This document shows positions 21,813-64,000 of a stretch of 64,000 bases of DNA, piece after piece. Under the pieces are notes generated by a model. The model saw only the letters and a program-made list of their open reading frames with translations, made no database searches and was not told the origin of the DNA. The DNA comes from Patescibacteria group bacterium (GTDB lineage: Bacteria; Patescibacteriota; Patescibacteriia; UBA10025; JBIOWE01): assembly GCA_044868145.1 (NCBI GenBank), contig JBIOWE010000006.1, positions 151,707 to 215,706 on the forward strand, in the 5' to 3' direction. Position 1 is the first letter of the stretch. Each line of letters starts with the position of its first letter. Made by a program: the position numbers and the translations under genes.

Positions 21813-21813
21813 T

Positions 21814-31868: not shown

Positions 31869-31882
31869 TGAATTTTTTGCTT

Positions 31883-32815: not shown

Positions 32816-32930
32816 AGGAGTATAGCTCTTTATGTCTTTATTGGTGAGTGTAAGGGATATTATACACAGTAACAACTTTATTATATATAGGGCTTTATTT
32901 GTTGTAAAGCCCTGTTCCCTAGCTCTTTGA

Positions 32931-32986: not shown

Positions 32987-33002
32987 GAATGGTGGTGATT
33001 GC

Positions 33003-33437: not shown

Positions 33438-33524
33438 TCCAAAATTAAAGATTAAAAATTAAATATAAAAAATAAAGTAAAGGAATTTTCCGCATTTTTT
33501 ATTTTTGATCTTTTATTTTTACTT

Positions 33525-33956
33525 TTATATTATGAGCCACCAAAGGATTATAAGAATAAAAAACACTTGCACCGCAATACCCGGCACGATATGGATTTCA
33601 TGCTGTACGCGTTCGTGCAAATTGTAAAACCATTTGAACGTGGTTTTTGCCAGTTTGGTATTATCGAGCAGCGATAATAAGTCCGGCAGGATCGCAGAGA
33701 ATACGCCGAGCGTGATGAGTTTCCATTGATTCGCAAAGACGAGGAGAAAAACTGCATAGATCAATGTTGATGCTATGAGATCTGGCCAGATTCGAAAGAA
33801 TTCATTAAAATGGATTTTACGCGGCCTGGCAAAATTCCAATGCGGGATAAAGTCCAATATAAAATGAGACAAAAAGCCCGTCAAGGCAATGGCTATGGGG
33901 CTTTCGACTTTTACACCGATCACGGCGCCAGCCAGTACATGCGAGAGTAACATCAT
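33525..33956 (-). CDS. Paralog 2 of the small membrane protein
   Basis: Same architecture. Shares an identical 30-nt AT-rich leader with paralog 1. Confidence 0.45.
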   Translation of the reverse strand: MMLLSHVLAGAVIGVKVESPIAIALTGFLSHFILDFIPHWNFARPRKIHFNEFFRIWPDLIASTLIYAVFLLVFANQWKLITLGVFSAILPDLLSLLDNTKLAKTTFKWFYNLHERVQHEIHIVPGIAVQVFFILIILWWLII

Positions 33957-34039
33957 GTCAGTAAATTAAAGATTAAAAATTAAATATAAAAATTTGGAAG
34001 AATCACTTCAATATTTTTTATTTTTACCTTTTTATATAG

Positions 34040-34888
34040 TCACTTATAAAATACTTTACCGGGGATTCTTACGTCTATGTATTGTAACTTTGACCGCTGA
34101 TCGGCCAGGGTCGTATTAAGCGCCTGTATAAGCGTTTCCATTTGCGCCTGCAGACTTTCGCGTCGATCAAAGTAGATAGTGAATCCTTCGTCAGACTTGA
34201 TGTGCAGTTCAGAGCTGCCGCCTGCCAGAAGCGTGTTCATGAGGGCGTGCACCGTTGTTTTGTTCTTGAGATCGTCTCGGAGCGTAAGGATAAAGGATAT
34301 TGTATCTTCTGATAAAATGCGTTTGCCAACCGCGACCTCACCGCTCCCCTCTTGCTGGACGATGGTAGCGTCGCTGGCGACGTTCTCCGTTTGTTCTTGA
34401 CGCACAACAATGCCGTTCACGTCAACAGAGTAATACAATTCCCCGGTTTTCCACAGCAGCGCGGGCGGTTGCTCTTTGATAGTAATGATAATCGCGTTTG
34501 GTAATTTCTTCTTGATGGAAAGATCCTCGATACGATATTTCTTTTCGATGTTTTCTTTCAGCCATGATTTACTGAACAGGAATATGTTGCTTTGCGGATA
34601 GATTGCGGCGCGGCGTTGGTGCAATTGCCAATCCACAAGATTCATTTTTACGAATTCTGTATTGATGATTCCGTTTGTTTGTACTGCAACTGTCGTAATG
34701 GCGAATACCGGCGAATAAAATAATAGGTAGACCAGTCCGAACATGAGCAGCAAAGCAAGAAGGACAAAAAAGGAAAAGCGTTCAACGACAAACTGCTGCC
34801 ATGTTCTTTTCTGAAACAGCGGGTTGCGATAGAGAGGCTCTTTTGCGTCTACGATATTGAGTTGTTTACGTTTAAAATTCCAACGCAT
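34040..34888 (-). CDS. FtsQ/DivIB-like cell division protein
   Basis: Short cytoplasmic tail, single transmembrane helix, then a POTRA-like periplasmic domain. Confidence 0.55.
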   Translation of the reverse strand: MRWNFKRKQLNIVDAKEPLYRNPLFQKRTWQQFVVERFSFFVLLALLLMFGLVYLLFYSPVFAITTVAVQTNGIINTEFVKMNLVDWQLHQRRAAIYPQSNIFLFSKSWLKENIEKKYRIEDLSIKKKLPNAIIITIKEQPPALLWKTGELYYSVDVNGIVVRQEQTENVASDATIVQQEGSGEVAVGKRILSEDTISFILTLRDDLKNKTTVHALMNTLLAGGSSELHIKSDEGFTIYFDRRESLQAQMETLIQALNTTLADQRSKLQYIDVRIPGKVFYK

Positions 34889-34925
34889 GTAAGCTACAGT
34901 AAAAATGTGAGGTATAGCCCTTTAC

Positions 34926-35057
34926 TTGACATGTTTTATAGCGTATGTTATGTTTGTTTTGAAAGAAATCCTCTGCACTTTCTTGCTTGTGCTCCGATTC
35001 CAGGATGAGGTTTCTTTTCACAGTCCCCGCGACCATTATATGGGAGCGGGGTTTTTA
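34926..35057 (+). ncRNA. Candidate sRNA unit A (promoter TTGACA-17-TATGTT to CCCCGC hairpin terminator)
   Basis: Promoter hexamers at 34926-34954. Terminator CCCCGCGACC..GCGGGG plus T5 at 35025-35057. Confidence 0.4.
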
Positions 35058-35077
35058 TTGGTAGTTATGGAAAATGG

Positions 35078-35234
35078 TTGACGTCTTTTTCGCAGTCTGG
35101 TACATTGAGTTTGTCCGGAGCTTACCACTCCGCGTCATGCTCTTTCTCAATTCAGGTACTCTCATTTATTCTTTTTATCAAGTCCCTTTGATAGACCCCG
35201 CGACCATTTTACCATTATGGAAGCGGGGTTTTTA
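35078..35234 (+). ncRNA. Candidate sRNA unit B (TTGACG-17-TACATT to terminator)
   Basis: Promoter at 35078-35106. Terminator at 35196-35234. Homologous to unit C in its 5' block and terminator. Confidence 0.4.
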
Positions 35235-35273
35235 TTGCTAGTTTGGAAGTCATGAAATTCTGCATGAAAATGT

Positions 35274-35460
35274 TTGACACCTTTTTTGCAGTTTGTTACC
35301 TTTAGTTTGCCCGGAGCTTAGGCTCTAGACGGCATGTTCTTTCTAAGAGGATCCATTAGAGGATTCTTTATCTGCGAGATCCATGATTATCTGGGTCTTC
35401 GCCTAGTTTGCCAATATCCCCGCAACCATATCTACCATCGTGGAGGCGGGGATTTTTTAG
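35274..35460 (+). ncRNA. Candidate sRNA unit C (TTGACA-18-TACCTT to terminator)
   Basis: Promoter at 35274-35303. Terminator at 35419-35460. Confidence 0.4.
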
Positions 35461-35479
35461 TTATCCACAATGAGCACTT

Positions 35480-35620
35480 TGACAAATTTTTCGTTTGATT
35501 TATAGTATATTCAGCTAGAAGTTAGAGAAGCTCTAAGTCTTTTCTACAGCGTTAGCCGTAAACAACCAAAACGGTTGCCGCGAACACCCTCATTCTTTAA
35601 AGAGTGAGGGTATTTTTTAT
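35480..35620 (+). ncRNA. Candidate sRNA unit D (TTGACA-16-TATAGT to ACCCTCA hairpin terminator)
   Basis: Promoter at 35480-35507. Terminator at 35586-35620. No ATG in the transcript. Confidence 0.4.
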
Positions 35621-35750
35621 CCCCACACCAACTTTAGGAGACTTCTACCCACCTTCAGGTGAGGGTTTCTGACCTTTAGGTCAGGAAGACCGGGCTAAAG
35701 CCCTGAACACCCTCGGCTCAAGCCGGGTAGAAAAGAAGAAAAGTCGGGAT

Positions 35751-36875
35751 TTATTTTGTAATGATCCTAGGAAGGGAAGGATTGATACGGGAAACGATTT
35801 CGTAGTGAATTGTTTTTGCTTGATGAGCGAGTTCATTCGCGGTCATTTCTTCCGGGCCATCGTGACCAAGCAATACTACTTTGTCCCCTACTCTGACTTT
35901 GGGGATGTGTGTAACGTCAACCATCGTGAGGTTCATGCAGATGCGCCCGCGTACCGGGGCGCGCTTGCCCTGGACCAGCACGTCGGCATTGTTCGACAGA
36001 CTCCTATCGTACCCTTCATAGTAGCCGACTGGTAATACGGCGATCCTGGCAGGTCGTTTTGCCCGATATATGCGACCATAGCCAACGGTTGTGCCTCGTG
36101 ACACGGTTTTGACTTGAATAATGCGGGTATACCACGAAAGCCCTGGTTTCAGTGATATGCGGTTTTTGAAGCCGTTCTGAACTGACGATAATCCGTATAA
36201 AGAAATGCCGAGCCGCACCATGCTCAAGCGTGTATGTGGGTTCATAATTGTGGATGCGCTGCATGCGGCATGGCGCATCGGTATGTGCATTCCTTGCTGT
36301 TCAAGGTGCTTTATGGTTTGTTGGAATGCGGTAAGTTGCTTATTGGTAAATGCTTGGTTGATATTTTCGGAGTCAGCAAAATGGGTAAAAATCCCTTCCA
36401 GCGTTAAGCCCGGGAGTTTTTGTATCGCTTGGACGAATCGAACTGTGCCATTCGGTAGTACACCAAGCCGTGTTGTGCCGGTATCTATTTTGACATGGAT
36501 CATCGCGCGTTTGTTCAGACGGCGGCTCATGGCCGAAAGGTAGTGCGCCTGCTCAAGCGTGTACATGGGGAATCGGACTTTTGCCGTAATACCTTGGCGA
36601 ACCTGGTCGTTGTCCTGGTTGAAGTAGCTTAATACCATGATAGGCGCCTTGAGCCGCGCATGAATAAGGTTCAACGCCTCGTCAAGGTTCGCGACGCCGA
36701 GCCAGTCTGCACCGGCGCTTTTGAAAACCTTGGCGCATTCAACCATGCCATGCCCGTAAGCATTGGATTTGACGACGGCCATGATGCTTGTTCTATGTCC
36801 AACCAGTTTTCGAAACTGTTTGACATTATGAACGAAGCTTGAACGTGAAATTTCAAGCCACGTCAGTCCTTCCAT
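35751..36875 (-). CDS. alr: Alanine racemase
   Basis: AVVKSNAYGHG PLP-binding motif. About 370 aa. Confidence 0.9.
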   Translation of the reverse strand: MEGLTWLEISRSSFVHNVKQFRKLVGHRTSIMAVVKSNAYGHGMVECAKVFKSAGADWLGVANLDEALNLIHARLKAPIMVLSYFNQDNDQVRQGITAKVRFPMYTLEQAHYLSAMSRRLNKRAMIHVKIDTGTTRLGVLPNGTVRFVQAIQKLPGLTLEGIFTHFADSENINQAFTNKQLTAFQQTIKHLEQQGMHIPMRHAACSASTIMNPHTRLSMVRLGISLYGLSSVQNGFKNRISLKPGLSWYTRIIQVKTVSRGTTVGYGRIYRAKRPARIAVLPVGYYEGYDRSLSNNADVLVQGKRAPVRGRICMNLTMVDVTHIPKVRVGDKVVLLGHDGPEEMTANELAHQAKTIHYEIVSRINPSLPRIITK

Positions 36876-50554: not shown

Positions 50555-51751
50555 TTACGCAAAAAGCTGGAGTGTTTGTTCGGCACACTTCCGCCAGCTG
50601 AACAACTGAATTCTTTGGAAGCCTTTTTCACGATATGCCGCGCGGAGCGCACTGTCTTCTGCCAATGTTTGCATTGCGTGGGCGATTGCGTCTGGCCGCT
50701 TGGGGTCTACGAGGATTGCGGCGTTCCCTGCCACCTCTGGCATGGATGCGACGTTTGACGTAATCACTGGCGTGCCGCAGGCCATGGCTTCGATAATAGG
50801 TATGCCAAACCCTTCATAGAGCGATGGCAGCAGAAAGCATGTCGCCGCGTTGAGAAGGTATGGGAGTTCTTCTTGCGCTACCCAACCGATCTCGTGTACG
50901 TCATGCGCAATGTCGTTTCGTCTCATTGTTTCCTCTACCTCCGAATAGTTGTACCCGGGATTGCCGACAAGAACGAGCTGGTGTTTGTCATGATCCTTGG
51001 CGATCCGTTTGAACGTTGCAAATGCCTCGATTATACCTTTTGTATTTTTCTTTTCCTCAAGTCTGCCAATCGTAAGAAAAAAGGGCCTATTTAAGCCATA
51101 TTTTTGCAGTACTGAAGTTATTTTTGCCGTATCGTCTATGACATGGTATACGTTTTTGTCGTATCCATTATGGATAACCGTCAAATCCGCATGAATGTCG
51201 GAATATGTTTTTTCAATCTCGTGTTTCGTAAATTCCGAAACTGCAATAACGGTCTGAGCATGTTTCAATGCAAAGCGAGCGGAGAATCGATGATAATCAA
51301 GTTCACTCGCACCATATTTACCCAACGAAGAAATTCGAATCAAAGCATCCAGAATGTATTTGAGAAAACCACGCGTTCCAATTTTTTTCTTTGAGTATAG
51401 TATGGGAAATTTTTCGAATCCGATATCGTGGAGCGTTGTTATTGTTCGTCGGGGACGGATGAATGGTATTGTATGAGCAGGCACGAATAAAACGTCCGGA
51501 GGGTGGATGAGCATTTCCCAGGACAGACGAAGCTGGGTCCAAAGCAACTTTGGCGGCCAGCGTAGTACCCTTGAGCGGAAGCCTTTCGGCAGTTGGGCGA
51601 GGTCGGAACGCAGTGGCGTTTTTGAATATAAAACAAACTCCACGTCGTTTGGAGCCATTGTTTTCAACTCATTGATCATGTGGAACGCATACCACTCGGT
51701 TCCGCTTCTCTCCCGTTCGTTGGCGCGTGATGCATCAATGCCAACAATCAT
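50555..51751 (-). CDS. GT4 glycosyltransferase
   Basis: EGFGIPIIEAMACGTPVI and E..G.. GT4 C-terminal signature. Confidence 0.8.
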   Translation of the reverse strand: MIVGIDASRANERERSGTEWYAFHMINELKTMAPNDVEFVLYSKTPLRSDLAQLPKGFRSRVLRWPPKLLWTQLRLSWEMLIHPPDVLFVPAHTIPFIRPRRTITTLHDIGFEKFPILYSKKKIGTRGFLKYILDALIRISSLGKYGASELDYHRFSARFALKHAQTVIAVSEFTKHEIEKTYSDIHADLTVIHNGYDKNVYHVIDDTAKITSVLQKYGLNRPFFLTIGRLEEKKNTKGIIEAFATFKRIAKDHDKHQLVLVGNPGYNYSEVEETMRRNDIAHDVHEIGWVAQEELPYLLNAATCFLLPSLYEGFGIPIIEAMACGTPVITSNVASMPEVAGNAAILVDPKRPDAIAHAMQTLAEDSALRAAYREKGFQRIQLFSWRKCAEQTLQLFA

Positions 51752-52759
51752 TTATTTTGCCGCTAAGATACTTTTTTTGTATGATTCAAGGTTATCGAGC
51801 GCCACGCCAGTCCCCTTGACGACACACAGCTGCGATTCATCCGCGACATAGGCAGGCACCCCCGTTGATTGGGTAAGGAGTAAGTCCATGTTGCGCAGTT
51901 GGGCAGTTCCACCGGAGAGCACCATCCCTTTGTCCATGACGTCGGCGGAAAGTTCCGGCGGCGTTTCTTGCAACACAGATTTTACCGCTTGAATAATTTG
52001 CGCGAGTTCGTCTTGAATCGCTTCCGTCACGTCGTCGCTTTCAACAGTGACGACCTTCGGCAATCCCTGAATGGAATCACGTCCTCGCACTTCCATCGTG
52101 AGCTTTTCTTCCATAGGCAGCGCAGAGCCGATTTGAATTTTGATCTCCTCTGCCGTTTGATCACCAATCACCAGCGTGTGTTTTTTTCGGACGTACTCTT
52201 GTATGGCAGCGTCCAGCTTATTGCCGCCGACGCGTACTGACGTGTTTGCGACAATGCCGCCAAGGGAAATAACGGCGACTTCCGTAGTTCCACCGCCGAT
52301 GTCCACGATCATATGGCCGGAAGCCGAACCAATGGGAATATTAGCGCCGATGGCGGCTGCGATAGGTTCTTTGATAATGTATGCGGCTTTGGCGCCAGCT
52401 TGCAGCGTTGCGTCAATCACTGCACGACGCTCGGTGGATGTGATGCCCGCCGGCACAGCAATCATTACTTCCGGTCGGAACAAGCGGACACCCCCGACTG
52501 CTTTGTTGATAAAATATCTGATCATGGCTTCCGTTGTTTTGTAGTCCGCAATCACGCCGTCTTTCAACGGGCGCGACGCGACAATGGTGTCGGGTGTTCG
52601 GCCTAACATCTCTTTTGCTTCATTGCCAACGGCCATGACCTTTTTATCGATCAGGGAAATTGCCACAACGGAAGGTTCATTGAGCACAATGCCCCTTCCG
52701 GGAATGTAGACAAGCGAGTAGGTTGTGCCGAGGTCAATGCCGATTTTTTTAGAAAACAT
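51752..52759 (-). CDS. Second MreB/Mbl-like actin homolog
   Basis: IGIDLGTTYSLVYI. 335 aa. Embedded in the glycosyltransferase operon. Confidence 0.8.
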   Translation of the reverse strand: MFSKKIGIDLGTTYSLVYIPGRGIVLNEPSVVAISLIDKKVMAVGNEAKEMLGRTPDTIVASRPLKDGVIADYKTTEAMIRYFINKAVGGVRLFRPEVMIAVPAGITSTERRAVIDATLQAGAKAAYIIKEPIAAAIGANIPIGSASGHMIVDIGGGTTEVAVISLGGIVANTSVRVGGNKLDAAIQEYVRKKHTLVIGDQTAEEIKIQIGSALPMEEKLTMEVRGRDSIQGLPKVVTVESDDVTEAIQDELAQIIQAVKSVLQETPPELSADVMDKGMVLSGGTAQLRNMDLLLTQSTGVPAYVADESQLCVVKGTGVALDNLESYKKSILAAK

Positions 52760-52762
52760 GGG

Positions 52763-54748
52763 TTAAAATTCAATAGTGAACTGTCGGTCGGTTTGCAAAT
52801 CAGTTTGGAAAACCACCTTATTTTGTCCCTTTTCCACCACTTTGTCAAATGGGGTGATCCACGACCAGGGCGTGTCGAATTCCAGCGTAATGTTCAGGCC
52901 GTGTCCAGGTGTGCCTGCCTGCTTTTGCACGAATAGTTTATATGGTTGTTCTGATGCCACGATTGATTCCGGAAGCGAGTAGCGCAGCACGAGATCTCGC
53001 TGCTCGTCGGGTTCTATGCAGACAAACGTTCCGAAGACGGTCCTGCCCTCCTCTTCCGATGTCTCCACCATACCTTCGTCACTTTTTTTGCAATCAACCA
53101 TGGCGCCTTCATGACTGATTAGCTTCGCGCCTTGAGGCACATACACCCGTGTATATGTCCTATATCGAGTTGTTTTCCAGGTAATCGTACCAGTATGATG
53201 GTAGGTGATCCGTACTTCCGCTTCACCCTTCCCTTGCCTCGTTATGAGTGTATAGCGAATGGATCGTTCTACCGCAGGGTCACTTTTCAAACTTGCGAGA
53301 TTTGCGTCAATGACCATAAGGTAATCCCCTGCTGTTTGTTTGATTTCTCCACCCCAGCCCGCCTGGACAACAAGATCTTCGAGGTCCGCATCGTTTGTGT
53401 AGAGTAAGATGTGCCGTTCGGATAAGTCGTTTTCAATGGCGCCGAAGAAGGCCGGCCAGTCTTTCTTGGGAAGATTGAGAATCCTTTCGATCAAGATCCC
53501 CGCAAGGTCACCAATAATTTCTTTCCGTTCCTTTTGCTCGATCCCCTGCCGTAAGAAACCCTGCTCTACTTGGTACTGTAACGTGTCAACAAAGTTATCC
53601 TTGGTAAAGAGAATGCCGTTGACCCGGATATCGCCGGTGATGGCTATGAGCGATTGAATGAGTGAAGGTGTTATGGCAATAACCCCGTCGATTTTTTTCT
53701 CCGGCCCGCGTTCAAGGCGGTAAAACTCAAGCGCCTTTTTTGCAGAGGTAGGGAAATCGGGCGACCAGTTTGCGTCGCGCAGAAACCATCTGTGTACATT
53801 GTTGTAACGCGTGAGCTGCGATGGGGGGTCGACAAATAAATAGTCTTCCGCTTGGCTATCGAGGTTATAGACATTATCCGTATTGAACGAAACAATCTCA
53901 CCATCTTTGAGTTTCACGATTCCGTATGTGCCAATGAATCCGCCGGTGGGCCTCATTTCCGTGTTGTTTTGGAGCAAAAATAAATAGGTTTTTTGATTCG
54001 GATAGCCAACCACGAGCGGGACGATTTGCGAGGCGGTTACGGCCTGATCAAAGGTTGTTTGCAAAGAAGGTATTTTTTCTTTGATTGGCCCAGTCGTCTC
54101 TTTGATTTTTCCCAACAGGCCTTTATCGGGAATGTCATTAATGTATTCGGCAGCTTTATCAACTCGCGCTTTTACTGCTAGTAAATCGGGTTTTGATTTG
54201 TAAATTTTTTCCAAAATAACGCGCTTGTCGCCTTGACTTAAACTTGAGAACGTAAACGTATCGTCGTGCTTAAACGGTTCAATAATGGATTCTGCGAGCG
54301 TGACCACGTCTTGCATGCCCTTGCCCGCCTCAACACCAGCCAGCAAGAGCTTTTCTACCGCGCTTATCTGGGTATTAACCAAAGGCACAAAGCGCAGGAT
54401 TGTCATTTTTCGCAATGCATCACGCGAGTGCTCAAAGGCGTTGGTCGCGTTCGTGAGCGAGGTCGATGCGCGCTCAAATTCCTGCTGCGTAATTTCGTCT
54501 TGCGCTTCGAGGAATGCGTCCCTGCCTTTCAGCGCTTGCCTGTAAGCTTCCAGGCCGTAAGGTTTGTAAATGAAAAAAATCGTTGTGCATGCCGCAAGCA
54601 GAATGACAAGAATGAGCACGACAACAATCCACACGGTGCGGCGTTTTTTGCGGGATTGTTGGGAATCGATTTCTGAAAGCAGGTTTCGTTTTTTTTGTTT
54701 AGGCATGCTCGGTTTTTTGCGGACTGCGTGCACCGAAGTATTTGGCAA
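52763..54748 (-). CDS. DUF4012-like membrane-anchored protein
   Basis: N-terminal transmembrane helix, about 660 aa, MRPTGGFIGTYG motif. Overlaps the upstream GT2 3' end, so the start may be the internal M at 54706. Confidence 0.5.
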   Translation of the reverse strand: MPNTSVHAVRKKPSMPKQKKRNLLSEIDSQQSRKKRRTVWIVVVLILVILLAACTTIFFIYKPYGLEAYRQALKGRDAFLEAQDEITQQEFERASTSLTNATNAFEHSRDALRKMTILRFVPLVNTQISAVEKLLLAGVEAGKGMQDVVTLAESIIEPFKHDDTFTFSSLSQGDKRVILEKIYKSKPDLLAVKARVDKAAEYINDIPDKGLLGKIKETTGPIKEKIPSLQTTFDQAVTASQIVPLVVGYPNQKTYLFLLQNNTEMRPTGGFIGTYGIVKLKDGEIVSFNTDNVYNLDSQAEDYLFVDPPSQLTRYNNVHRWFLRDANWSPDFPTSAKKALEFYRLERGPEKKIDGVIAITPSLIQSLIAITGDIRVNGILFTKDNFVDTLQYQVEQGFLRQGIEQKERKEIIGDLAGILIERILNLPKKDWPAFFGAIENDLSERHILLYTNDADLEDLVVQAGWGGEIKQTAGDYLMVIDANLASLKSDPAVERSIRYTLITRQGKGEAEVRITYHHTGTITWKTTRYRTYTRVYVPQGAKLISHEGAMVDCKKSDEGMVETSEEEGRTVFGTFVCIEPDEQRDLVLRYSLPESIVASEQPYKLFVQKQAGTPGHGLNITLEFDTPWSWITPFDKVVEKGQNKVVFQTDLQTDRQFTIEF

Positions 54749-55514
54749 AATATTTAAGCCACGATGCCGTATGAATTCTCGTCGGGTAGCTGAATAATCC
54801 TTTCAGCCCAGGATTCGCGGCAGACTCACGTTTATGATAATGAACCAATTCAATATGCGCAATGTAATAGACATCAAAGCCGGCTTCCCAGAATCTTCTG
54901 CACCAATCAACGTCTTCAAAGTACAGGAAGAATCGTTCATCCATTGGACCGACTTTTTCAAACGCGCTGCGCCGAACAATCATACAGGCGCCAACGAACC
55001 AATCAACTGGTCGGTCTATCGCGTGGTCAAAGTCGAGCATCAGGTATTGTTGGAGCCGTCGCTTCGCAAAGGGCAGCTTTCCGATGGGCGTCCGTCGCAA
55101 CAATGGGATGAAAAATGTGGGGAAACGGTAACAGGACAGCTGCACGCTACCGTCCGGATTCAGGAGTTTTGGCCCAGCAATCCCGACTGACTGATGCTGT
55201 TCCATAAACGTGTGGAGTCTCGCAATAGCATTGTCAAGAATGGCAATATCCGTGTTCAAGAGCAAGAAATAATTGCCTTGGGCTTTACGTATGCCAAGGT
55301 TCATCCCACCGGCGAATCCCCTGTTTGTTTCCGATTTAATGAACGTCACATCGGGGAATTCCTGTTGCATCATGGTTTCTGTGCCATCGTTTGAATGGTT
55401 GTCTACGACAATAATTTCGAATTTGAATGGTAGATGAAACAACCCAATGCCCTTTAAACATTGTTTCAGGAGCCCGCGGGTTTTGTAGTTAAGAATGATA
55501 ATGGAAAGATCCAT
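54699..55514 (-). CDS. GT2 glycosyltransferase
   Basis: LSIIILNYKT...DNHSNDGT and DxD-region motifs. Confidence 0.8.
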   Translation of the reverse strand: MDLSIIILNYKTRGLLKQCLKGIGLFHLPFKFEIIVVDNHSNDGTETMMQQEFPDVTFIKSETNRGFAGGMNLGIRKAQGNYFLLLNTDIAILDNAIARLHTFMEQHQSVGIAGPKLLNPDGSVQLSCYRFPTFFIPLLRRTPIGKLPFAKRRLQQYLMLDFDHAIDRPVDWFVGACMIVRRSAFEKVGPMDERFFLYFEDVDWCRRFWEAGFDVYYIAHIELVHYHKRESAANPGLKGLFSYPTRIHTASWLKYFAKYFGARSPQKTEHA

Positions 55515-55627
55515 GCTCTATGCATTGACAAATGACGAATGTCGAATGATCCGCCCGACTCGCTGCAGACGCAGCTGCGTCGAAGCGGGCGGGCTAATGC
55601 CTAAACAATAGTTGAGCGCTTCAATGA

Positions 55628-56602
55628 TTAATCAATGAATGATCGTAGGTCGCCTTCTGATGTTTTTCGCATTTTCATAATCTGCGCACGTTTTTTCATC
55701 ATTTTTGGTAGCAAAAAGAGAAATTGTAGGAAACCGAGGAATGTCGTTTGTTCCAAGAGAAAGACGTACAGAAATTTTCTGAGCTCGTACCAAATGATGA
55801 ACGGTAGATCTCGAAGAAAGTTGCTTGGTAACTCATTTTTTGCGATCATGAGCAACTGATTGCGATAGGACAAACGATTGATGAGCTTCCGGTCCTTGCG
55901 GGGTTGTAACGAGCGGATACGCCTGCTATGAAACGCGATTGCCGAAGGAACATACAGCGCTTTCCAGCCGGCGAGCTGTAATCGCCATGCCAGATCAACG
56001 TCTTCTTTGTAAGCAAAGAAATCTTCGTCGAAATATTCTTGTCCGAACTTGATTTGCTCAAGCGCTGCGCGACGCAAGAGAACCGCCGAACCGGAAAAGC
56101 CGAAGACGAATTCTTCCGCGTCATATTGCTTTTTGTCTGCTTCCCCTTCCCCCCGGTTGATTACCTTGCGTGATCGAAAGATTTGCAGGCTAGCAACGTC
56201 TATTCTAACAGAATATTGGCCATTTTTCAATGACGTGTTCGGCCGAAGTAGTTTGCCGGATGCGCTTCCGAGTGTTGTATCCCCTTCTATTTTGCTTATG
56301 AGAATTTCCAGGAATCTGGGTGAAAGCGTCACGTCCGGATTCAAGCAAAGAACGTAGGGCGTAATTGACGCGTTTATTGCCTGATTATGTGCCTTACAGT
56401 AGCCAGTGTTTCTGTCGTTACGTATGACTCGGATGTGAGGGGCTTTCTGGATATGTTCGAGCGTTCCGTCTTGCGATGCGTTATCGACGATAACGATTTC
56501 AAATGCGCGAAATGTCTGCGCTTGAATCGATGCAAGGCAGAGAGGCAAATCGTTTTTACTATTCCATGTAACGAGTGAAATTGTTAGTTTTGGATTTGAC
56601 AT
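55628..56602 (-). CDS. GT2 glycosyltransferase
   Basis: ISLVTWN...VDNASQDGT motifs. Confidence 0.8.
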   Translation of the reverse strand: MSNPKLTISLVTWNSKNDLPLCLASIQAQTFRAFEIVIVDNASQDGTLEHIQKAPHIRVIRNDRNTGYCKAHNQAINASITPYVLCLNPDVTLSPRFLEILISKIEGDTTLGSASGKLLRPNTSLKNGQYSVRIDVASLQIFRSRKVINRGEGEADKKQYDAEEFVFGFSGSAVLLRRAALEQIKFGQEYFDEDFFAYKEDVDLAWRLQLAGWKALYVPSAIAFHSRRIRSLQPRKDRKLINRLSYRNQLLMIAKNELPSNFLRDLPFIIWYELRKFLYVFLLEQTTFLGFLQFLFLLPKMMKKRAQIMKMRKTSEGDLRSFID

Positions 56603-56651
56603 TGTGCGTGTTTCACGCTATTTTAGAATTAAAGAAGAGGAGGGAGGAGCC

Positions 56652-56774
56652 ATGAAGGCACTAATAAAAATTATCGAATTCCTTCTGACCGTTATTGGAT
56701 TCTTGGTTGCACTTGGGATGCTTCTCTACATTCTGGCCTTTCACAAGGACCGATCGGAGACAGTACAGAGCTAG
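56652..56774 (+). CDS. 40-aa single-TM peptide (MKALIKIIEFLLTVIGFLVALGMLLYILAFHKDRSETVQS), not in the ORF track
   Basis: Very strong SD (AAGAGGAGGGAGGAG) ending 3 nt before the ATG. TTGACA-17-TATTTT upstream. Stop overlaps the stop of the convergent gene. Confidence 0.4.
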   Translation: MKALIKIIEFLLTVIGFLVALGMLLYILAFHKDRSETVQS

Positions 56775-58288
56775 CTTTCGATCTTTTGCTCACCCCCATT
56801 GGGTGAGCTTTTGATTTGCATTATGATACTCGCGAATACGACAATGAACATAATGCCGAGCGGGTGGTTAAGGTATGGAGTCGTAAAATGGGTAATGATT
56901 AATGCAAGGAATGCAAACAGGAGTCCCAAGGTGAGCGCACGGCCTTCATCCGGCCTGGTCTGTATCAACATTAGTCCTTGGCGGGCGATGACCCAAAGGA
57001 AGTACACATATGCCGCCAGTCCCAGAAAACCCATTTTAAGCGCGATATCTAGATACCCCCATTCAAAGGCGTATGAGGTATAGTTTCCGCCATTCAGTTC
57101 TTTCGTTCGCGGATCGAGCGTTTGATACGTTACTGTGGTTCCAAATCCCGATCCAAAGATCGGGTGTTCAAGCGCTTTGCTCACAAGAGGCTTGAATAAT
57201 TGGAATCGGCTGCCGAGTGCGGGCTCCTCCGTTGTGGTAATGCGCTGGCGAATCAAACTCGCGGCCGAGGATCCGCTCCTCCCCCCAGGCAGTTGAACAT
57301 TAATAAGGAACGTGATAAACGCCACTTCGAGAACCGCTAGCCCGACCATTATCCCGATGACCCTGCCAAAACGTTGCCAGCCGATTTTCTCTTTGGCTAG
57401 CCAGTAGATAAAAAGCACCACGAGCGAGATTGCCAGGGCGAGCCAGAAGCTTCTTGAGAAACTGATAGTGAGCGTAAGGCTTGAAAGAATCGCCACAAGC
57501 CACACAACACGCCAATCTTCCTTGCGCCATGCATGCCTTTTTCTGCCAACCAGAAAAACAATTGCGATGAGAAACGCGAACAAAGCCCAGATATGGCTCT
57601 GGAAAAAGATGCGAAAGAAGTTTTCCGTGATTTGGGCAATTTCGCCGACCCCGGTATTGCGCACCCACCTATACATTAGTCGAATGAGCGTTTCATCGGT
57701 TTGATGGGAGAAGTAATACAGCAAAAAAAGCGTTTTTATCCCAATGACCGACACGCTTGCGAACATCGTTTGTAGGGTTTGTGAAATGCGCTTCCAATTA
57801 TTGATGACCGTGAAACCTACAAACAGTAATCCAAAATACAGATATCCATTGACGTCAAAAAAGATATTTTTTGGATCATTATGATATAAGACCCCCATGA
57901 CCACGCCAAGGATAAGGAATGCTAGTAAGATTAAAAAAGGTAAAAAAAACGGTGAACGTTTCAATGTAATTTTTCGCGCTCGGATGACATGAAAAAGCCA
58001 GCCGAGGAATACGGCGAGAAAAATGCCGAGCCGTATGGATACAGTGAATTCGCCCATGTCAAAAGAAAAGAGATACCCCTTTGATCCAACGATCAGCTCC
58101 GCGAGCGCGATCCAGAAACCATATTCAATTTTCCAAAATGACAAAACAAGCGCTGCGCCTAGCGTAAGAAAAAAAACTACATGGTTGATCGGTCCAACAA
58201 AGTATCCAAGAAACGATGCTATCTCAAAAATAATAAGCAGCCAAAATGTTATTTTAAAATGCTGGCCGTAGAGTTTTATCTGGTTCAT
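56771..58288 (-). CDS. O-antigen ligase/polymerase-like polytopic membrane protein (Wzy/WaaL family)
   Basis: At least 10 transmembrane helices with a large periplasmic loop. Sits in the glycan cluster. Confidence 0.55.
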   Translation of the reverse strand: MNQIKLYGQHFKITFWLLIIFEIASFLGYFVGPINHVVFFLTLGAALVLSFWKIEYGFWIALAELIVGSKGYLFSFDMGEFTVSIRLGIFLAVFLGWLFHVIRARKITLKRSPFFLPFLILLAFLILGVVMGVLYHNDPKNIFFDVNGYLYFGLLFVGFTVINNWKRISQTLQTMFASVSVIGIKTLFLLYYFSHQTDETLIRLMYRWVRNTGVGEIAQITENFFRIFFQSHIWALFAFLIAIVFLVGRKRHAWRKEDWRVVWLVAILSSLTLTISFSRSFWLALAISLVVLFIYWLAKEKIGWQRFGRVIGIMVGLAVLEVAFITFLINVQLPGGRSGSSAASLIRQRITTTEEPALGSRFQLFKPLVSKALEHPIFGSGFGTTVTYQTLDPRTKELNGGNYTSYAFEWGYLDIALKMGFLGLAAYVYFLWVIARQGLMLIQTRPDEGRALTLGLLFAFLALIITHFTTPYLNHPLGIMFIVVFASIIMQIKSSPNGGEQKIES

Positions 58289-59235
58289 TTATGTACTGTA
58301 CCGATTATGTTCCAATGCCAAGCCAATTGATTCACAAAAGGAATACGCTCAATCAATGAGTCCATATTTTGGTACAATCGCTGCATCTGTTTGGACGGAT
58401 GTGCGTTTCCCTTGCTCATGCGTTCTTTGAGCCGAACGTACGAATCATAGAGTTCGAGCGTGTATTTCACGGGACGCATTTCGTTCAGTTCAATGCCGGT
58501 ATCGGCAAACAACCGTTCGATCTGCTGTTTGCTAAATCCTTCGGATGAGTCGTCGGCTACGGAGTCTACGCTGCGGTCACGGCGCTTTCGTATGAGCCGT
58601 TTTACCGGCGCCAAGAGCGGATAAATGAGTTTATAGGGCCAGCGATTTGGTTCAACCCCGAAGACGACTACCCCGCCGTTTTTGGTCACGCGCTTTATTT
58701 CCAAAAGTCCTTTCCCGGGGTTTTCGAGGTGGTGGAACGCGGCAGCCATCAACACACCATCAAAGCTGTTGTCGGCGAATGGTATATGTTCCGCGTCCGC
58801 GAGGATGAACGCGACGCGATCTTGGACGCCAATGTCGTTCGCGAGCTGTCGGGCGAGTTCCAGCGCCTTCAATGACACATCTGTCTCGATCACGTTTTGC
58901 CCTGCTTGCGCGATTTCAAAACCGTCGGCTCGGTTACCGCAACCCAGCTCCAAGATAAGCGAGTTGCGCGGCAGATCAACCAACGGTTTTCGAAAATGTT
59001 CGTGGAATGGTGCTGACCGGTTGTCGAGCTTGCGTTTGCCTTCTTGTTCGTAAGTCAAATCCCAAAATCGCTCCTCGGTTGTGCGAAAGAGGTTGTGGTC
59101 AGGTGGTAGAAGGTTGAGTATCCCGTTTTTTTCTTGAAACACTGTATGGCAGCCTTTATGGGAGTATCCATTATCTTTTTTTTCGAGCGGTGCGCCGTGA
59201 ATGGGACAATGGACGATCTGCGCGTAGTCAATCAT
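58285..59235 (-). CDS. Class I SAM-dependent methyltransferase with N-terminal Trm112-like zinc ribbon
   Basis: LELGCGNRADG motif I. N-terminal C..H...C.H ribbon. Confidence 0.75.
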   Translation of the reverse strand: MIDYAQIVHCPIHGAPLEKKDNGYSHKGCHTVFQEKNGILNLLPPDHNLFRTTEERFWDLTYEQEGKRKLDNRSAPFHEHFRKPLVDLPRNSLILELGCGNRADGFEIAQAGQNVIETDVSLKALELARQLANDIGVQDRVAFILADAEHIPFADNSFDGVLMAAAFHHLENPGKGLLEIKRVTKNGGVVVFGVEPNRWPYKLIYPLLAPVKRLIRKRRDRSVDSVADDSSEGFSKQQIERLFADTGIELNEMRPVKYTLELYDSYVRLKERMSKGNAHPSKQMQRLYQNMDSLIERIPFVNQLAWHWNIIGTVHK

Positions 59236-60082
59236 GGCTTTTTGTTAGGTCAACAATGAGCGCTAATACAATGCTGATTGGATAGAGCGCGAGAAGCGCG
59301 AGTGCGGAGGCCGGGGTGTCGTGCTTGATGAAATATCGAATCGCGCTGTCATTAAACCAAATTTGTTTTCTTACTGCTGATTGTTGGACGAAGCTTTTGG
59401 CTTTGTGATGGACGATTGTTGCCCTCGGGGTGTAGTATACTTGCCAGTTTTTGTTTTTTGCTCGTTTGCAAAAATCCACCTCCTCGAACCAAATGTAATA
59501 ATCTTTATCGAGTAATCCGATTGCATCGAACACCTTTTTTCTGACCATAAAAAAAGCGCCCATCACTTGGTCGACGGTCTGTTCTTGTTCATAATCAAAA
59601 TCCTTGGCGAAATATTTTTTGAGGGCGGGATGGTTCGGCGCAACATGATGCATTTTTAGGAAAATGAATGCCATCGCGGCGAGCGTTGGAAATCTCCTGA
59701 CTGAAGGTTGTAGCGTTTTATCTGTGTTCAAGAGTTTGCATCCGGCAATGCCGCATTGAGGTTTTTCTTTCATGAATCGTATTGTGGTGGTCAGCGCACC
59801 CTCCATGATCTCCGTATCTGGGTTGAGCAAGAGCACAAACTCCCCTTGGGCCTTTTGTATTGCTTGATCATTCGCTTCGGCAAACCCAATAGTGCGATCA
59901 AGAGCAATAAGGTTCACGGACGGGAACTGTTTCCGCACCATGTCCGCGCTTCCGTCGCTTGAACCATTATCAATAACAAAAACCTCGTGAGAGAGGTTTT
60001 TGGTCGTTCGTTCGATTGATGCAAGACACTTCTTTAATAATTCCTGGACGTTCCAATTGACGATTATCACGGATAAATCCAT
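59228..60082 (-). CDS. GT2 glycosyltransferase
   Basis: MDLSVIIVNWN...IDNGSSDGS. The track start at 60169 is a TTG; the ATG at 60082 lies 7 nt after a TACAAT -10. Confidence 0.8.
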   Translation of the reverse strand: MDLSVIIVNWNVQELLKKCLASIERTTKNLSHEVFVIDNGSSDGSADMVRKQFPSVNLIALDRTIGFAEANDQAIQKAQGEFVLLLNPDTEIMEGALTTTIRFMKEKPQCGIAGCKLLNTDKTLQPSVRRFPTLAAMAFIFLKMHHVAPNHPALKKYFAKDFDYEQEQTVDQVMGAFFMVRKKVFDAIGLLDKDYYIWFEEVDFCKRAKNKNWQVYYTPRATIVHHKAKSFVQQSAVRKQIWFNDSAIRYFIKHDTPASALALLALYPISIVLALIVDLTKSHD

Positions 60083-60089
60083 ACGACAT

Positions 60090-60118
60090 ATTGTACAATT
60101 TTTTGGGGATTTTTGCAA
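60090..60118 (-). promoter_or_regulatory. Promoter TTGCAA-17-TACAAT, 7 nt before the GT2 ATG (leaderless)
   Basis: Read on the minus strand. Confidence 0.5.
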
Positions 60119-60333
60119 TGAGTTGAATATTCCTGATTGTTGTTGTACAATTAAATAAACTCTCCCCAATTCAAGGGGATTTTTTTATAGCTATTACCGC
60201 CCCTCTGGAACCGTTAGTACATATACAAAGCACGTATGATATCCCCTCCTTACCAAGGAGGGGATGAACGGACGACGTAGACTCGCCCCGCATGGTTTCT
60301 CGAGGGGAGGTCCGAGGGGCATTCAAAAACCAA

Positions 60334-60690
60334 ATGACAATTCTTTTTAATAGAAAATCTTTAACGTCGAGGCGTAAAATTTTGAGACTCACGATGCCGA
60401 AAGCAGAGGTGATTCTTTGGCAATACTTAAAGGATAGGCAAATAGTCGGATATAAGTTCCGTAGGCAATATAGCATTAGTAAATATGTTGTTGATTTTTA
60501 TTGTCCGAGGAAGAAGTTGGCAATCGAAGTGGATGGACCAACACATTTTTCCCTGCAAGCGATGGAATATGATATCAAGCGCCAAGCATTGATTGAATCT
60601 TTTGGGATTAGGGTGATACGCGTAACGAATACAGATGTATATGAAAATATTCGAGGTGTAATAAATGAAATACAGAAGCATTTGGTATGA
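60334..60690 (+). CDS. DUF559/Vsr-like endonuclease-domain protein
   Basis: LW..L...GYKFRRQ..I..Y.VDFYC...KLAIEVDG..H pattern of DUF559. A perfect hairpin lies 70 nt upstream. Confidence 0.55.
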   Translation: MTILFNRKSLTSRRKILRLTMPKAEVILWQYLKDRQIVGYKFRRQYSISKYVVDFYCPRKKLAIEVDGPTHFSLQAMEYDIKRQALIESFGIRVIRVTNTDVYENIRGVINEIQKHLV

Positions 60691-60795
60691 AAGCACTTAA
60701 TAATCGACTAATTTCTCGATGCGGGATTGATTCCGTTTGCCAAAAACGATAAAATGTGGTACAATTGACGTAATAAAATATATAAATCCTTTGAG

Positions 60796-60827: not shown

Positions 60828-63800
60828 ATGGCTGTACGTCGTCGAAACAGAATAAATAAGAAAAGAAAAAAGACCAACGCAATGAAGGGGCGATTTCGCC
60901 TTCTTTTTGTTTTATCTATTGTTTGCATTGGTTTATTTTCCATGGGTATGGTCTTGGCTGCTGGGAATACTACCAACGTTACGGCTCAACCGACGTCGTG
61001 CACCGGCTGGCAAAACGCTAGCAAAGCGGAAGCAATTGATTTGCTTGGCTCGTCAGATCTTGGTAGTTTTTCCGGCCAAAACTCTTCGTTTTTCTATAAC
61101 TCCCCCACTCCTGCTGATGCGCTAAGCGCGCCCTCGAATATTCTTGATTGCGCATCTTTTACAGTAACCGATTCTTTGCCAGCACGGTCAACGATCACGC
61201 GGGCAGCCGTTTCTTTTTCCTTTGCAGCGAAGTCGTACCCGGAGAATGAGGATGTGGTGAGCTTTGCGTATTCATTGGATGGAACAAATTGGACGACGCT
61301 CGACTCATTTGCACTCACTGGTGATACAAGTAATGCCATCCACGAAGGTTATCGGGAATATCCCGTGACCGGCATCAGACCTGAAACGCTAGCGCAGCTT
61401 CGCGTGCGTGTGACCTATTTCGCGACGGAACCGACGCATGAGTCCGTAAGCTTTCTTGATAGCGTTCAATTACAGGTATCCTATGAAACGGCAAAAGGTC
61501 AGAAGCCTTTGGCATTACCCAATGACGTAGCTGTATTTACAAAAAAAGATTTCAAGCAGTCCGAGCAGCCATCTTTGGACGTTGAAGTTGAGCACCGTTC
61601 TCTGTTTGGATTTCTTGGCGTTGACCCGACTGTTCGCGCCGTGCACTCGATCCGTGTGGTCGATCCACATGGTGTTGAACGGGAAGGTATCGTGACCGAG
61701 CAACGGCATGATGAAGGCAGGAAAACTTTTGAGCAATATTCCCTCGATCCCGCAAACTTCACTTCACCAGGAAAGTACGAAGTGATTATTTCCATTGAGC
61801 AAGATGGACAAACCGAGCAGGTGCAAAAGGAATTCTCTTGGGGCGTGCTTGTCATGAACACGATGAAGTCGGTGTACCGTCCGGGCGAGACGGCGCATTT
61901 CGGCATGGGCGTGCTCGATCCGTCAGGCCACACCATCTGCGATGCGCAGTTAGAATTGCGTATTACTGATCCAAAGGGTCGTACAGCTCATCTCACAACG
62001 GCGAAAAGCCAAATTCGCTACTCGCAAGAATGCGGTCCCGATAACGTTACGAATTTGCCTGATTATTCAGCCGAATACGGGGTGGAGGGCGCTGGGGATT
62101 ATGCGCTTGTGCTAACCGCGACCACAGGCAGCGGCACGTATACGATTACTGACACGCTCTTTGTACGAGAGAGCATCCCTTTCGATATTATAAGAATTGG
62201 GCCGACGCGTATTTTTCCAAAAGCGAACTACGAAATGTTCCTTGAGATTGTACCGACGTATGATTACAAGGGAACAGTCGAAGAATTCGTACCTTCATCG
62301 CTCAGTCTGATTCGCATCGACCAAGCAGGGACGAGTTTTGAAGTTGATAAAAACACGACAGGCATTCGCTGGAATGTGGATTGGAAAGCCGGACTAGCAT
62401 ACACGTTGTCATACCAATTTGACCCTCCTGACGTGAGTCCGGATTTGCACGTCCTTGGTCCGGCAAAGGTCGGATCATTTCAAGAATATCGCCAGTGGCA
62501 AATCGCCTCGGACTCAACTGGTTCTGGGGCGCCGACCCGGCAATGGATGACGGGTTTTGAAAACAATACGACGACAGCTGATATCGAGTACACCGCCAAC
62601 GTCGGTTCGCCGACTGTACAAACCACGACCGTTCGTTCTGGAACGTACGCCATGCAAACGAACGTTTCGGCCACGACCGCCGGATTCAGCAACGACTTTG
62701 AGTCAGCTGACGCCGCGACTGGGCACTATTTCCGGGAGTACGTTCGGTTCACCACCTTGCCAAACGCCAACACCTTGATCATGGCTATCCGCGATTCCGG
62801 CGCCACCAACCAAGCCAGCATCCGGTATGACAACACGAATGCTAAGTTTGAGCTGTGGAACGAGGAGGACTCGGCGCAAATCGGTTCGGATTCGACCGGA
62901 ACCATTACCACCGGTACCTGGTACAGGCTGGAAATGTATGTTGACTTCGGAACGGCGGCAACCGGCGATACAATTGTGAAGGCACGTCTTAATGGCACAG
63001 AGTTTGCTGCGGCTACGAACGTCAACTGGGCCAACGGCGTTATGACCATGCAAGGCGGTATTATTACCACCAACGCCACCGCCAATGCGTTTATCGACGA
63101 CGTGGCGATTAACCTCGACTCAACAACCTCGGTCGCCGGCGAAGGCTACCCCGGCGAGGGGAAAATCATTTACCTGCGGCCGAACGGCAACGGGACGAAC
63201 ACGGCCTGGACCGGAGATTCCACCGCGGTTGACGAAGTGACGCCGAACGACGGTACCGATGTCATTAGTTGTTCCGCGAGCGCCCAAGCTGAGGATTATA
63301 CCTTAACCGATGCTACTGCCAACGGGGTCAATGCTCTTGATACCATCAAAGTTCTTCAGACGTATGTACGCGTAGGCAACTCATCATCCGGTTCGTCCCA
63401 CAACTATAGTATTGTCCTGAACCTGAGTGGGACGGCCGATACGGTATCGAACGTAACAATTGCTACTGCTACGACGTGGTTTACTATTGACGATACAAAA
63501 CCGCGAAATCCGACGACCACGATTGCGGCCACGGGCAACGTTTCTCAAGGGCAAGTATCGTATGATAAGCCTGGTACGACGACTGATCCCTGGACGCCGG
63601 CGGACGTTGATAGCGCCCAGGTCAACATCAACACGGGCGACTGTGCGCCGGTGACCAACATCAGCACCGTTTGGGTTGAAGTCGAGTACGTGGCCGCCGA
63701 GGGTGGCCGACTATACTCTTCGGGTTTCGAATTGCAAAGCACGACCGCTGACATGGAATACACCGCTAATGTCGGTTCGCCAACTATCAGCACCAGCACG

Positions 63801-64000
63801 GTCCGTTCTGGCGCGGCCTCGCTACGAGCCAACCCCTCCGCAACGACGGCCGGCATGAGCTACGATTTTCGCTCGGCCGACGATGCTACTGCAACGTTTT
63901 TCCGGGCTTATGTCCGGTTTACCACCTTCCCGAACGCCAACACGTTGATCATGGCCATTCGTGATAATGCGGCCACGAATCAAGCAAGTATTCGTTTTGA
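60828..64000 (+). CDS. Giant secreted/surface protein with repeated concanavalin A-like (LamG-like) modules; runs off the window end (absent from the ORF track)
   Basis: Manual translation shows no in-frame stop from 60828 to 64000. Basic N-terminus then signal/TM (second ATG at 60882: MKGRFRLLFVLSIVCIGLF). A roughly 390-aa module is repeated (TADIEYTANVGSPT...FREYVRFTTLPNANTLIMAIRD near 62570; a second copy near 63750). WYRLEMYVDF...AFIDDVAI resembles the LamG/ConA-like core. Confidence 0.7.
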   Translation, partial: MAVRRRNRINKKRKKTNAMKGRFRLLFVLSIVCIGLFSMGMVLAAGNTTNVTAQPTSCTGWQNASKAEAIDLLGSSDLGSFSGQNSSFFYNSPTPADALSAPSNILDCASFTVTDSLPARSTITRAAVSFSFAAKSYPENEDVVSFAYSLDGTNWTTLDSFALTGDTSNAIHEGYREYPVTGIRPETLAQLRVRVTYFATEPTHESVSFLDSVQLQVSYETAKGQKPLALPNDVAVFTKKDFKQSEQPSLDVEVEHRSLFGFLGVDPTVRAVHSIRVVDPHGVEREGIVTEQRHDEGRKTFEQYSLDPANFTSPGKYEVIISIEQDGQTEQVQKEFSWGVLVMNTMKSVYRPGETAHFGMGVLDPSGHTICDAQLELRITDPKGRTAHLTTAKSQIRYSQECGPDNVTNLPDYSAEYGVEGAGDYALVLTATTGSGTYTITDTLFVRESIPFDIIRIGPTRIFPKANYEMFLEIVPTYDYKGTVEEFVPSSLSLIRIDQAGTSFEVDKNTTGIRWNVDWKAGLAYTLSYQFDPPDVSPDLHVLGPAKVGSFQEYRQWQIASDSTGSGAPTRQWMTGFENNTTTADIEYTANVGSPTVQTTTVRSGTYAMQTNVSATTAGFSNDFESADAATGHYFREYVRFTTLPNANTLIMAIRDSGATNQASIRYDNTNAKFELWNEEDSAQIGSDSTGTITTGTWYRLEMYVDFGTAATGDTIVKARLNGTEFAAATNVNWANGVMTMQGGIITTNATANAFIDDVAINLDSTTSVAGEGYPGEGKIIYLRPNGNGTNTAWTGDSTAVDEVTPNDGTDVISCSASAQAEDYTLTDATANGVNALDTIKVLQTYVRVGNSSSGSSHNYSIVLNLSGTADTVSNVTIATATTWFTIDDTKPRNPTTTIAATGNVSQGQVSYDKPGTTTDPWTPADVDSAQVNINTGDCAPVTNISTVWVEVEYVAAEGGRLYSSGFELQSTTADMEYTANVGSPTISTSTVRSGAASLRANPSATTAGMSYDFRSADDATATFFRAYVRFTTFPNANTLIMAIRDNAATNQASIRF

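Follow-up and report, generated by a model that had tools for sequence, protein, structure and literature searches.

The window analysed here, a stretch of 64,000 nucleotides from contig JBIOWE010000006.1, ends inside a giant gene whose predicted secreted product carries a 390-residue module in two tandem copies. The open frame lies on the plus strand (60828..64000) and covers the first 40% of a gene of 2,546 codons, which leaves the window at its end. Re-translation of 60828–64000 gave 1,057 codons without a single in-frame stop, in agreement with the frame of more than 1,050 codons claimed in the initial annotation of this DNA. In random sequence the chance of such a stop-free run is ~(61/64)^1057, or roughly 1e-22. 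The frame is absent from the mechanical list of open reading frames (ORFs) because ORFs running past the window end were excluded from that list. Both candidate start codons are present, at 60828 and 60882, and the public gene call uses the second. Neither ATG is preceded by an obvious Shine-Dalgarno sequence. Upstream on the same strand, a consensus scan found a promoter-like TTGCCA-17-TACAAT with a TG extension (60737..60765), which is a pattern match only, with 10 of 12 positions agreeing.

The remainder of the gene was recovered from public data. An exhaustive HMMER search retrieved a protein of 2,546 residues, P0088, which matches the window product without a single difference over the 1,039 residues encoded between 60882 and the window end. 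Its gene has been called, without a name, on two public contigs (the 57-kb Logan contig L004 and one NCBI contig), and the description of the frame as unannotated therefore has to be withdrawn. On L004 the full gene occupies 10001–17641, which supplies the stop codon, and the upstream genes there match those of the window; the other window proteins that were looked up map to the same NCBI contig as P0088. The acidic product has high contents of Thr (15.8%), Ala (10.6%), Ser (10.0%) and Gly (9.7%), a composition that probably accounts for the climb in G+C content to 0.54 across the final 2 kb of the window.

P0088 begins with a predicted Sec signal peptide or N-terminal anchor, MKGRFRLLFVLSIVCIGLFSMGMVLAAG (residues 1–27; 60882..60962, plus strand). 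Read from the sequence, it passes from basic to hydrophobic to small residues in the layout of a Sec signal peptide, and hydrophobicity peaks at 2.71 inside the first 50 residues, consistent with the basic N-terminus and hydrophobic signal or transmembrane segment described initially. An N-terminal extracellular region follows (residues 28–552; 60963..62537, plus strand), of which the last ~280 residues form a conserved unit; homologues P0001–P0011 cover ORF residues ~140–570. Within this region, a segment resembling the MG2 beta-sandwich of alpha-2-macroglobulin type (61860..62003, plus strand; ORF residues 345–392) matched PF01835 at E = 2e-7 and 31.7 bits, under the cut-off of 32.8. The match is also weak in the relative P0093, MG2 of alpha-2-macroglobulin in the PDB was reached at E = 0.17, and no PDB relative emerged when the N-terminal region was searched as a profile.

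The two copies of the module come next, at residues 553–942 and 943–~1325 (complete copy at 943–1324). They are followed by a conserved linker (1326–1558), three repeats of ~220–270 residues (1559–2234), a conserved region preceding the C-terminus (~2235–2370) and a C-terminal domain comprising the last ~171 residues. Thr, Ser, Asn, Gly and Ala together make up 63% of the three repeats, which are probably beta-helical; the relative P0091 bears the name right-handed parallel beta-helix repeat protein. Searches of Pfam, NCBIfam and the PDB with the whole window ORF returned only the sub-threshold MG2 segment, and NCBIfam gave no match on full-length P0088.

Comparison of separate parts of the ORF confirmed the repeat. 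ORF residues 571–667 and 961–1057 share 69% identity over 97 ungapped residues (E = 6e-42), and the corresponding DNA segments (62551–62830 and 63721–64000) are 70% identical at a spacing of 1,170 nt, equal to 390 codons. The module length of about 390 residues proposed in the initial annotation is thereby reproduced. Its picture of a repeat protein holds insofar as the module is repeated, but the full protein contains just two tandem copies and no long array of them. Module 1 spans 62538..63707 on the plus strand and comprises two domains, which together are homologous to the first 383 positions of the phage protein family phrog_14065. Its first domain (62538..63122) is a jelly roll of concanavalin A (ConA)-like or LamG type, close to that of Cip1, and its second (63150..63707) is a beta-sandwich resembling galactose-binding domains (GBDs) of the CBM32, discoidin and fucolectin type, both assignments being based on the predicted structure described below. 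Of module 2, the window holds the first 97 residues (63708..64000, plus strand; hidden Markov model match to model positions 1–97) before it is cut by the window end.

An AlphaFold2 model of one module, computed with a 51-sequence alignment (A1), was confident (pLDDT 89.6, pTM 0.90) and consisted of two beta domains. As modelled, domain 1 (module residues 1–195) is a ConA-like jelly roll, a two-sheet antiparallel sandwich of ~180–200 residues with a concave sheet. Structural comparison of this domain gave scores of 14.2 for CBM66, 12.8 for a laminin LG domain and 12.7 for the carbohydrate-binding module (CBM) of a phage Dit protein. By sequence, the family profile A1 finds Cip1 (PDB 3ZYP) at E = 5e-8. 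The strand motif DDVAIN at the C-terminal end resembles the DDVRIY-type strand of LamG_3. Domain 2 is modelled as a distorted beta-sandwich of ~130–180 residues with discoidin/CBM32 topology, the galactose-binding domain-like fold; it has no Pfam or PDB sequence match that would place it in a defined CBM family. The ConA/LamG core suspected in the initial annotation thus corresponds to the first half of each module, whereas the second half is the GBD-like sandwich, and the model does bear out a similarity to lectin-like folds. Both folds are classic non-catalytic carbohydrate-binding scaffolds.

Neither Pfam nor NCBIfam has a family for the module. The window module is without a Pfam match at E ≤ 0.1, the LamG models of Pfam stay under threshold on the window sequence, and relatives fall just short of the cut-offs (Laminin_G_3, 25.0 versus 27.6 bits; Cip1-like PF21340, 26.4 versus 27). 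The module shares its superfamily with Laminin_G_3 (PF13385) but is nearer to the Cip1-like proteins, as indicated by PF21340 in one relative and by the PDB profile search.

Several conserved positions in domain 1 coincide with a metal site of Cip1. In alignment A1, E8, G35, R66 and P215 are invariant, and S34, D187 and D188 are kept in ≥90% of the sequences. S34 is aligned with Ser37 of Cip1 in the profile alignment, while E8 and D187/D188 are matched to Glu7 and Asp206, respectively, by position only; these three Cip1 residues are the side-chain ligands of its structural calcium ion (PMC3764139). In Cip1 and PL20 proteins, such a site is built from an N-terminal loop, the "bent finger" loop and the C-terminal strand. 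The jelly roll of each module is therefore proposed to hold a putative calcium site and may be calcium-stabilised.

Domain 1 has its closest structural neighbours among the polysaccharide lyases, a point in favour of an enzymatic alternative, namely that the protein is a surface-tethered lyase or depolymerase cutting the capsule, exopolysaccharide or wall glycans of a host for access or feeding. The residues proposed to line the cleft of Cip1 are His98, Arg100, Gln104, His83, Glu194 and Tyr196, and Cip1 itself showed no convincing lyase activity (PMC3764139). In the window module His98, Arg100 and Gln104 are aligned with Gln, Ser and Asp, His83 falls in an insertion, and the alignment does not reach Glu194 and Tyr196. 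Catalysis and substrate binding in polysaccharide lyase family 7 (PL7) depend on Arg, Gln, His and Tyr residues. Alignment A1 contains no invariant His, Gln or Tyr, and the conserved domain 1 residues that were examined (E8, S34-G35 and D187/D188) are placed at the calcium "grip" rather than in the cleft, with the exception of Arg66, which is aligned with Arg70 of Cip1. Furthermore, no lyase or hydrolase family of Pfam matches full-length P0088. The module also departs from Cip1 and from the PL20 and PL7 lyases, whose proposed cleft residues it does not conserve, in its fused GBD-like domain and in its setting within a giant multidomain protein. Because the alignable Cip1 cleft residues are not conserved, we regard the module as a non-catalytic binding unit, and an enzymatic role for the protein seems unlikely. 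Membership in the PL7 or PL20 lyases was rejected, given that the three alignable cleft residues are not conserved.

Outside this locus the module is widespread. The exhaustive HMMER search found 1,495 cluster representatives (clustered at 50% identity) at E ≤ 1e-3, 262 of them at E ≤ 1e-30, and the proteins fetched from this larger set fell into three classes. The first comprises ~28 clusters of giants (1,000–6,500 residues) with two full-length modules 2–4 residues apart and mostly hydrophobic N-termini; two or three of these ~28 hold an extra full or partial module. In the second class, ~165 proteins of 300–1,300 residues have one module from residue ~3 and no hydrophobic leader. The third consists of about a dozen proteins of ~420–460 residues with a hydrophobic leader and one module.

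The N-terminal single-module proteins of the second class look phage-encoded. Module residues 1–387 align with positions 3–383 of the 1,152 positions of the phrog_14065 profile at E = 3.6e-32, so that the whole two-domain module is homologous to these phage proteins (and to the shorter phrog_2448); membership in phrog_14065 is at the level of domains, the other ~770 profile positions being unmatched. A tblastn search returned only Streptomyces phages (Hiyaa gp13, Galactica gp11 and others), whose proteins are labelled minor tail protein or hypothetical. Hiyaa gp13 and its relatives show 28–29% identity to the module over 99% of its length, and the gp13 gene is located between the genes for the major capsid protein and the head-tail adaptor. 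Foldseek comparison with BFVD likewise gave whole-module matches (TM 0.6–0.73) to virion proteins of Sphingomonas, Vibrio, Roseovarius, Achromobacter and Serratia phages.

Metagenomic contexts agree with this distribution, four of five being clearly phage. On contig L002 the module is accompanied by genes for terminase, a major head protein and a tail-fibre adaptor, and on L009 it lies between portal-MuF and capsid genes. On L008 it follows the tape measure gene and a LamG_3 protein and precedes lysis and integrase genes, the usual position of a receptor-binding protein. L007 encodes a terminase and a Mu-type protease, and its module protein, P0055, is a leader-bearing member of the third class. 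In addition, a relative of P0020 sits on an IMG/VR contig. Searching with the window module itself found no relative in the viral contig set and only two in the genome contig set. The link to phage virion proteins had been missed in the initial annotation, the overall picture of which is otherwise supported.

Two of these contexts contain additional glycan-related genes. The phage contig L007 encodes Wzy_C, glycosyltransferases and a sugar epimerase at 17717–21253, and L003 (1–7589), which may or may not stem from a phage, has genes for glycosyltransferases, DegT aminotransferases, a formyltransferase and an epimerase beside a stand-alone module. Together the two contigs suggest that functions for surface-glycan modification travel with the module.

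Given the matches to phrog_14065 and to phage virion proteins, we considered whether the giant gene could itself belong to a phage, as a tail fibre or other virion protein encoded by a prophage or the remnant of one; the IS200-like transposase downstream on L004 and the DUF559 endonuclease-like ORF upstream might be cited in support. The flanking genes argue otherwise, since they are of cellular type (glycosyltransferases, MreB, holB, a flippase, rpsI and proteins that are secreted or anchored) and no terminase, portal, capsid or tail gene occurs within 10 kb on either side, in contrast to the gene context of phrog_14065. The phage-type relatives listed mostly have a single module at the extreme N-terminus, starting at residue 3, and no signal peptide, with a leader in a minority such as P0055. 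Here the modules are internal, tandem and part of a secreted cellular protein with a signal peptide. In addition, Patescibacteria lineages preserve the entire architecture in collinear form. On gene context we rejected a prophage origin, and we consider a phage-borne gene highly improbable.

The conservation of the architecture is most evident among the large relatives. In 19 of 30 of them, the N-terminal unit is present and ends exactly at the first module; the linker behind the modules and the region preceding the C-terminus are each shared by 16 of 30, and the terminal domain by 5 of 30, while differences in length fall mostly in the repeat region. The orthologue in Candidatus Microgenomatus auricola is a 3,000-codon ORF, collinear with P0088 at 51% identity. 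All taxon-labelled relatives are of Patescibacteria type, the module being carried by Candidatus Microgenomatus auricola, Parcubacteria and WWE3, and the N-terminal region by Nomurabacteria and by entries labelled "Patescibacteria group". Since the labelled relatives are Patescibacteria, we infer that the window comes from a bacterium of the candidate phyla radiation (CPR). In content it resembles an ordinary small-genome bacterial chromosome, with aminoacyl-tRNA synthetases, PBP2, FtsQ, alanine racemase, MreB and holB.

In a neighbour-joining tree, the first modules of the giants group together and so do the second modules, with few exceptions. Between proteins, modules in the same position are 36–44% identical (first with first, second with second), versus 32–36% for paralogous pairs. 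The tandem pair and the duplication behind it are therefore old. The window lineage stands out in that the LamG halves of its two modules are 70% identical, versus a family average of 40%, while the second halves are 38% identical. This pattern suggests domain-limited homogenisation or gene conversion of the LamG halves (62538–63122 versus 63708–64000 and onward on L004), and the high similarity of these halves is what made the repeat visible in the initial annotation.

The elevated identity of the LamG halves would also fit if they were the hypervariable target of a diversity-generating retroelement (DGR) or part of a recently amplified, contingency-type repeat array, and CPR genomes often carry DGRs aimed at surface proteins with lectin folds. 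The sole direct repeat in 60–64 kb is only 70% identical, however, and no near-identical pair of template and variable repeat was found there. Among the domain-scanned ORFs, which are part of all ORFs, there is no reverse transcriptase. The separate groups of first and second modules point to an old duplication, and the pair has been kept in ~28 relatives. With DNA copies at 70% identity, DGR targeting and recent amplification were rejected, and we assign this explanation a negligible chance.

Divergently from the giant gene, the minus strand carries an envelope and glycan cluster (50555..60169) in which Pfam identifies GT4, MreB, DUF4012, GT2, GT2, Wzy_C, methyltransferase and GT2 genes, GT denoting glycosyltransferase families. 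The initial placement of the frame next to a surface-glycan cluster was thus correct. The DUF4012 protein of this cluster (661 residues; 52763–54748, minus strand) is encoded between the MreB and GT2 genes. A 132-residue ORF (60292–60690, plus strand) with matches to the endonuclease-like DUF559/MTES_1575 separates the glycosyltransferase cluster from the giant gene. On L004 an IS200-like Y1 transposase ORF (17777–18265; PF01797, E = 1.2e-7) directly follows the stop of the giant gene, and further downstream are secreted or anchored proteins, a polysaccharide flippase and rpsI.

One of the downstream genes is related to the giant gene itself. About 900 bp downstream, L004 encodes a secreted protein of 359 residues (18551–19630) whose C-terminal half is 75% identical to the last 171 residues of P0088. 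The pairing recurs in Candidatus Microgenomatus auricola, where the same small paralogue is encoded downstream of the orthologue (L005, 9317–10462). Database searches yielded 23 relatives of the C-terminal domain, 166–295 residues long, and those with labels are Patescibacteria or "predicted secreted protein"; the domain defines a family of small secreted proteins in Patescibacteria. From this sequence relationship we infer that the shared domain may anchor both proteins to the envelope or let them co-assemble. A possible likeness to WxL-type wall-binding domains found no support in Pfam, where 25 members scanned at E ≤ 5 yielded zero WxL matches, or in the PDB.

The shared C-terminal ~170 residues and their pairing with the adjacent 359-residue protein, kept in Candidatus Microgenomatus auricola, would also suit a structural component of the envelope, an S-layer-like or sheath or fibre subunit built together with the small protein and having no specific ligand. 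The acidic, Thr/Ser/Gly/Ala-rich composition and the position beside glycosylation and Wzy genes fit such a role, and the literature credits giant proteins with a fibrous cell surface in CPR. Pfam and NCBIfam scans of the window part and of full-length P0088 detected neither SLH nor other known S-layer domains, which leaves the S-layer-like role suggested initially without evidence. A chain of 2,546 residues with several ligand-binding-type domains is unlike a lattice subunit, and the range of 1.0–6.5 thousand residues among the relatives, which vary mostly in their repeats, fits variation in the stalk length of an adhesin better than it fits a lattice. A purely structural role is thus a weaker candidate still than the enzymatic one.

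Two further observations concern the surroundings. On L004 a dockerin type I protein (20748–21602; E = 3.3e-6, above the Pfam cut-off) is encoded beside a protein that combines a signal peptide with a C-terminal transmembrane segment (21735–22880), and the latter has a weak cohesin match (E = 0.004). In this CPR bacterium the two may act as a small surface tether of cohesin-dockerin type. Pfam matches among the small proteins downstream of the giant gene were limited to these two domains and IS200. Elsewhere in the window, a stretch of low G+C content (0.44–0.45) at 30000–36000 contains a tyrosine recombinase gene (31883–32980, minus strand; Phage_integrase, E = 5e-32). Next to it, a region of ~1 kb is free of long ORFs and contains AT-rich tandem units of 13–14 bp, AAATTAAAGATTA (33441–33477 and 33963–33994).

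Taken together, these data favour a secreted giant surface protein of a CPR bacterium that acts as a glycan-binding adhesin, probably directed at a host cell; we put the probability of this reading, which draws on sequence and structural models, at about 0.6. The protein would be exported via the Sec pathway, and its C-terminal domain would keep it at the envelope by attaching to the wall or by co-assembling with the small paralogue. The long repeat region would serve as a stalk projecting the module pair outward, and the modules would bind glycans on the surface of another cell, most plausibly the bacterial host of a presumed episymbiont. A role in cell-surface recognition fits because the same module is found on phage particles in positions typical of host recognition or decoration. 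The adhesin proposed in the initial annotation is accordingly plausible in light of the folds, the signal peptide and the relatives, its function being deduced from these features. The accompanying suggestion that the protein is glycosylated finds weak support at best, with 53 sequons versus 42 ± 5.5 in shuffled sequences.

Several points weigh against the adhesin. Glycan binding, surface location and host contact are all indirect deductions, and the episymbiont lifestyle is taken over from relatives. The closest structural neighbours of domain 1 are, as described above, lyases rather than lectins, and the evidence for loss of the cleft comes from one profile alignment spanning part of domain 1. 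PHROG files the phage homologues under "unknown function". Regarding retention at the cell surface, the C-terminal domain has no sequence relative in Pfam or the PDB, and no LPXTG motif, SLH domain or C-terminal transmembrane segment was seen in the giant protein.

Giant CPR surface proteins with lectin domains are a kind already known. Giants with adhesion domains, including ConA-type ones, are proposed as host-recognition factors in passages of two reports (PMC8080830, PMC13059738), and part of a third describes lectin-like and dockerin-containing envelope proteins as essential for epibiotic growth of the Saccharibacterium Southlakia epibionticum (PMC10633639). As far as these passages describe them, the giants of Vampirococcus lugosii and Absconditicoccaceae and the envelope proteins of S. 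epibionticum share with P0088 their very great length, a signal peptide or transmembrane segment and glycan-binding or adhesion beta-sandwiches, including ConA-type ones, together with reduced genomes, envelope-gene neighbours and a proposed role in host-cell recognition. The comparison is by description only, and the known giants are characterised there through generic Pfam domains (FN3, integrin, VCBS, PKD and ConA). The passages on known CPR giants mention neither the tandem pair of LamG and GBD-like domains, nor the preceding MG2-like unit, nor a C-terminal domain in common with a neighbouring protein. In the literature searched, we found no account of this family, of the conserved tandem pair or of homology between the module and phage virion proteins.

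Beyond type IV pili, host recognition and attachment in CPR bacteria (Patescibacteria) are largely obscure, and the giant surface proteins suspected of a part in them are mostly unannotated. One such family now has a defined architecture and confident fold assignments, which is progress in annotation and not a new mechanism. Its module is widespread (~1,500 clusters at 50% identity, without a Pfam entry) and, wherever a phage genome or contig was examined, is linked to virion proteins. As a unit of 390 residues it is expressible and can be tested for glycan binding, and it is a possible marker for comparing the host-recognition repertoires of CPR bacteria and phages. The sharing of the module with phages is the feature most worth following. 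More speculatively, the tandem LamG and GBD-like pair might be a cassette for cell-surface recognition that phages and Patescibacteria share and exchange. Ultrasmall episymbionts would then find and grip their bacterial hosts with the glycan-reading device that phages carry on their virions, with the giant protein forming a surface fibre or anchor with its small neighbour; we hold this extension to be doubtful at present. If it were true, the specificity of the modules could predict the hosts of uncultivated CPR lineages, as phage receptor-binding proteins do.

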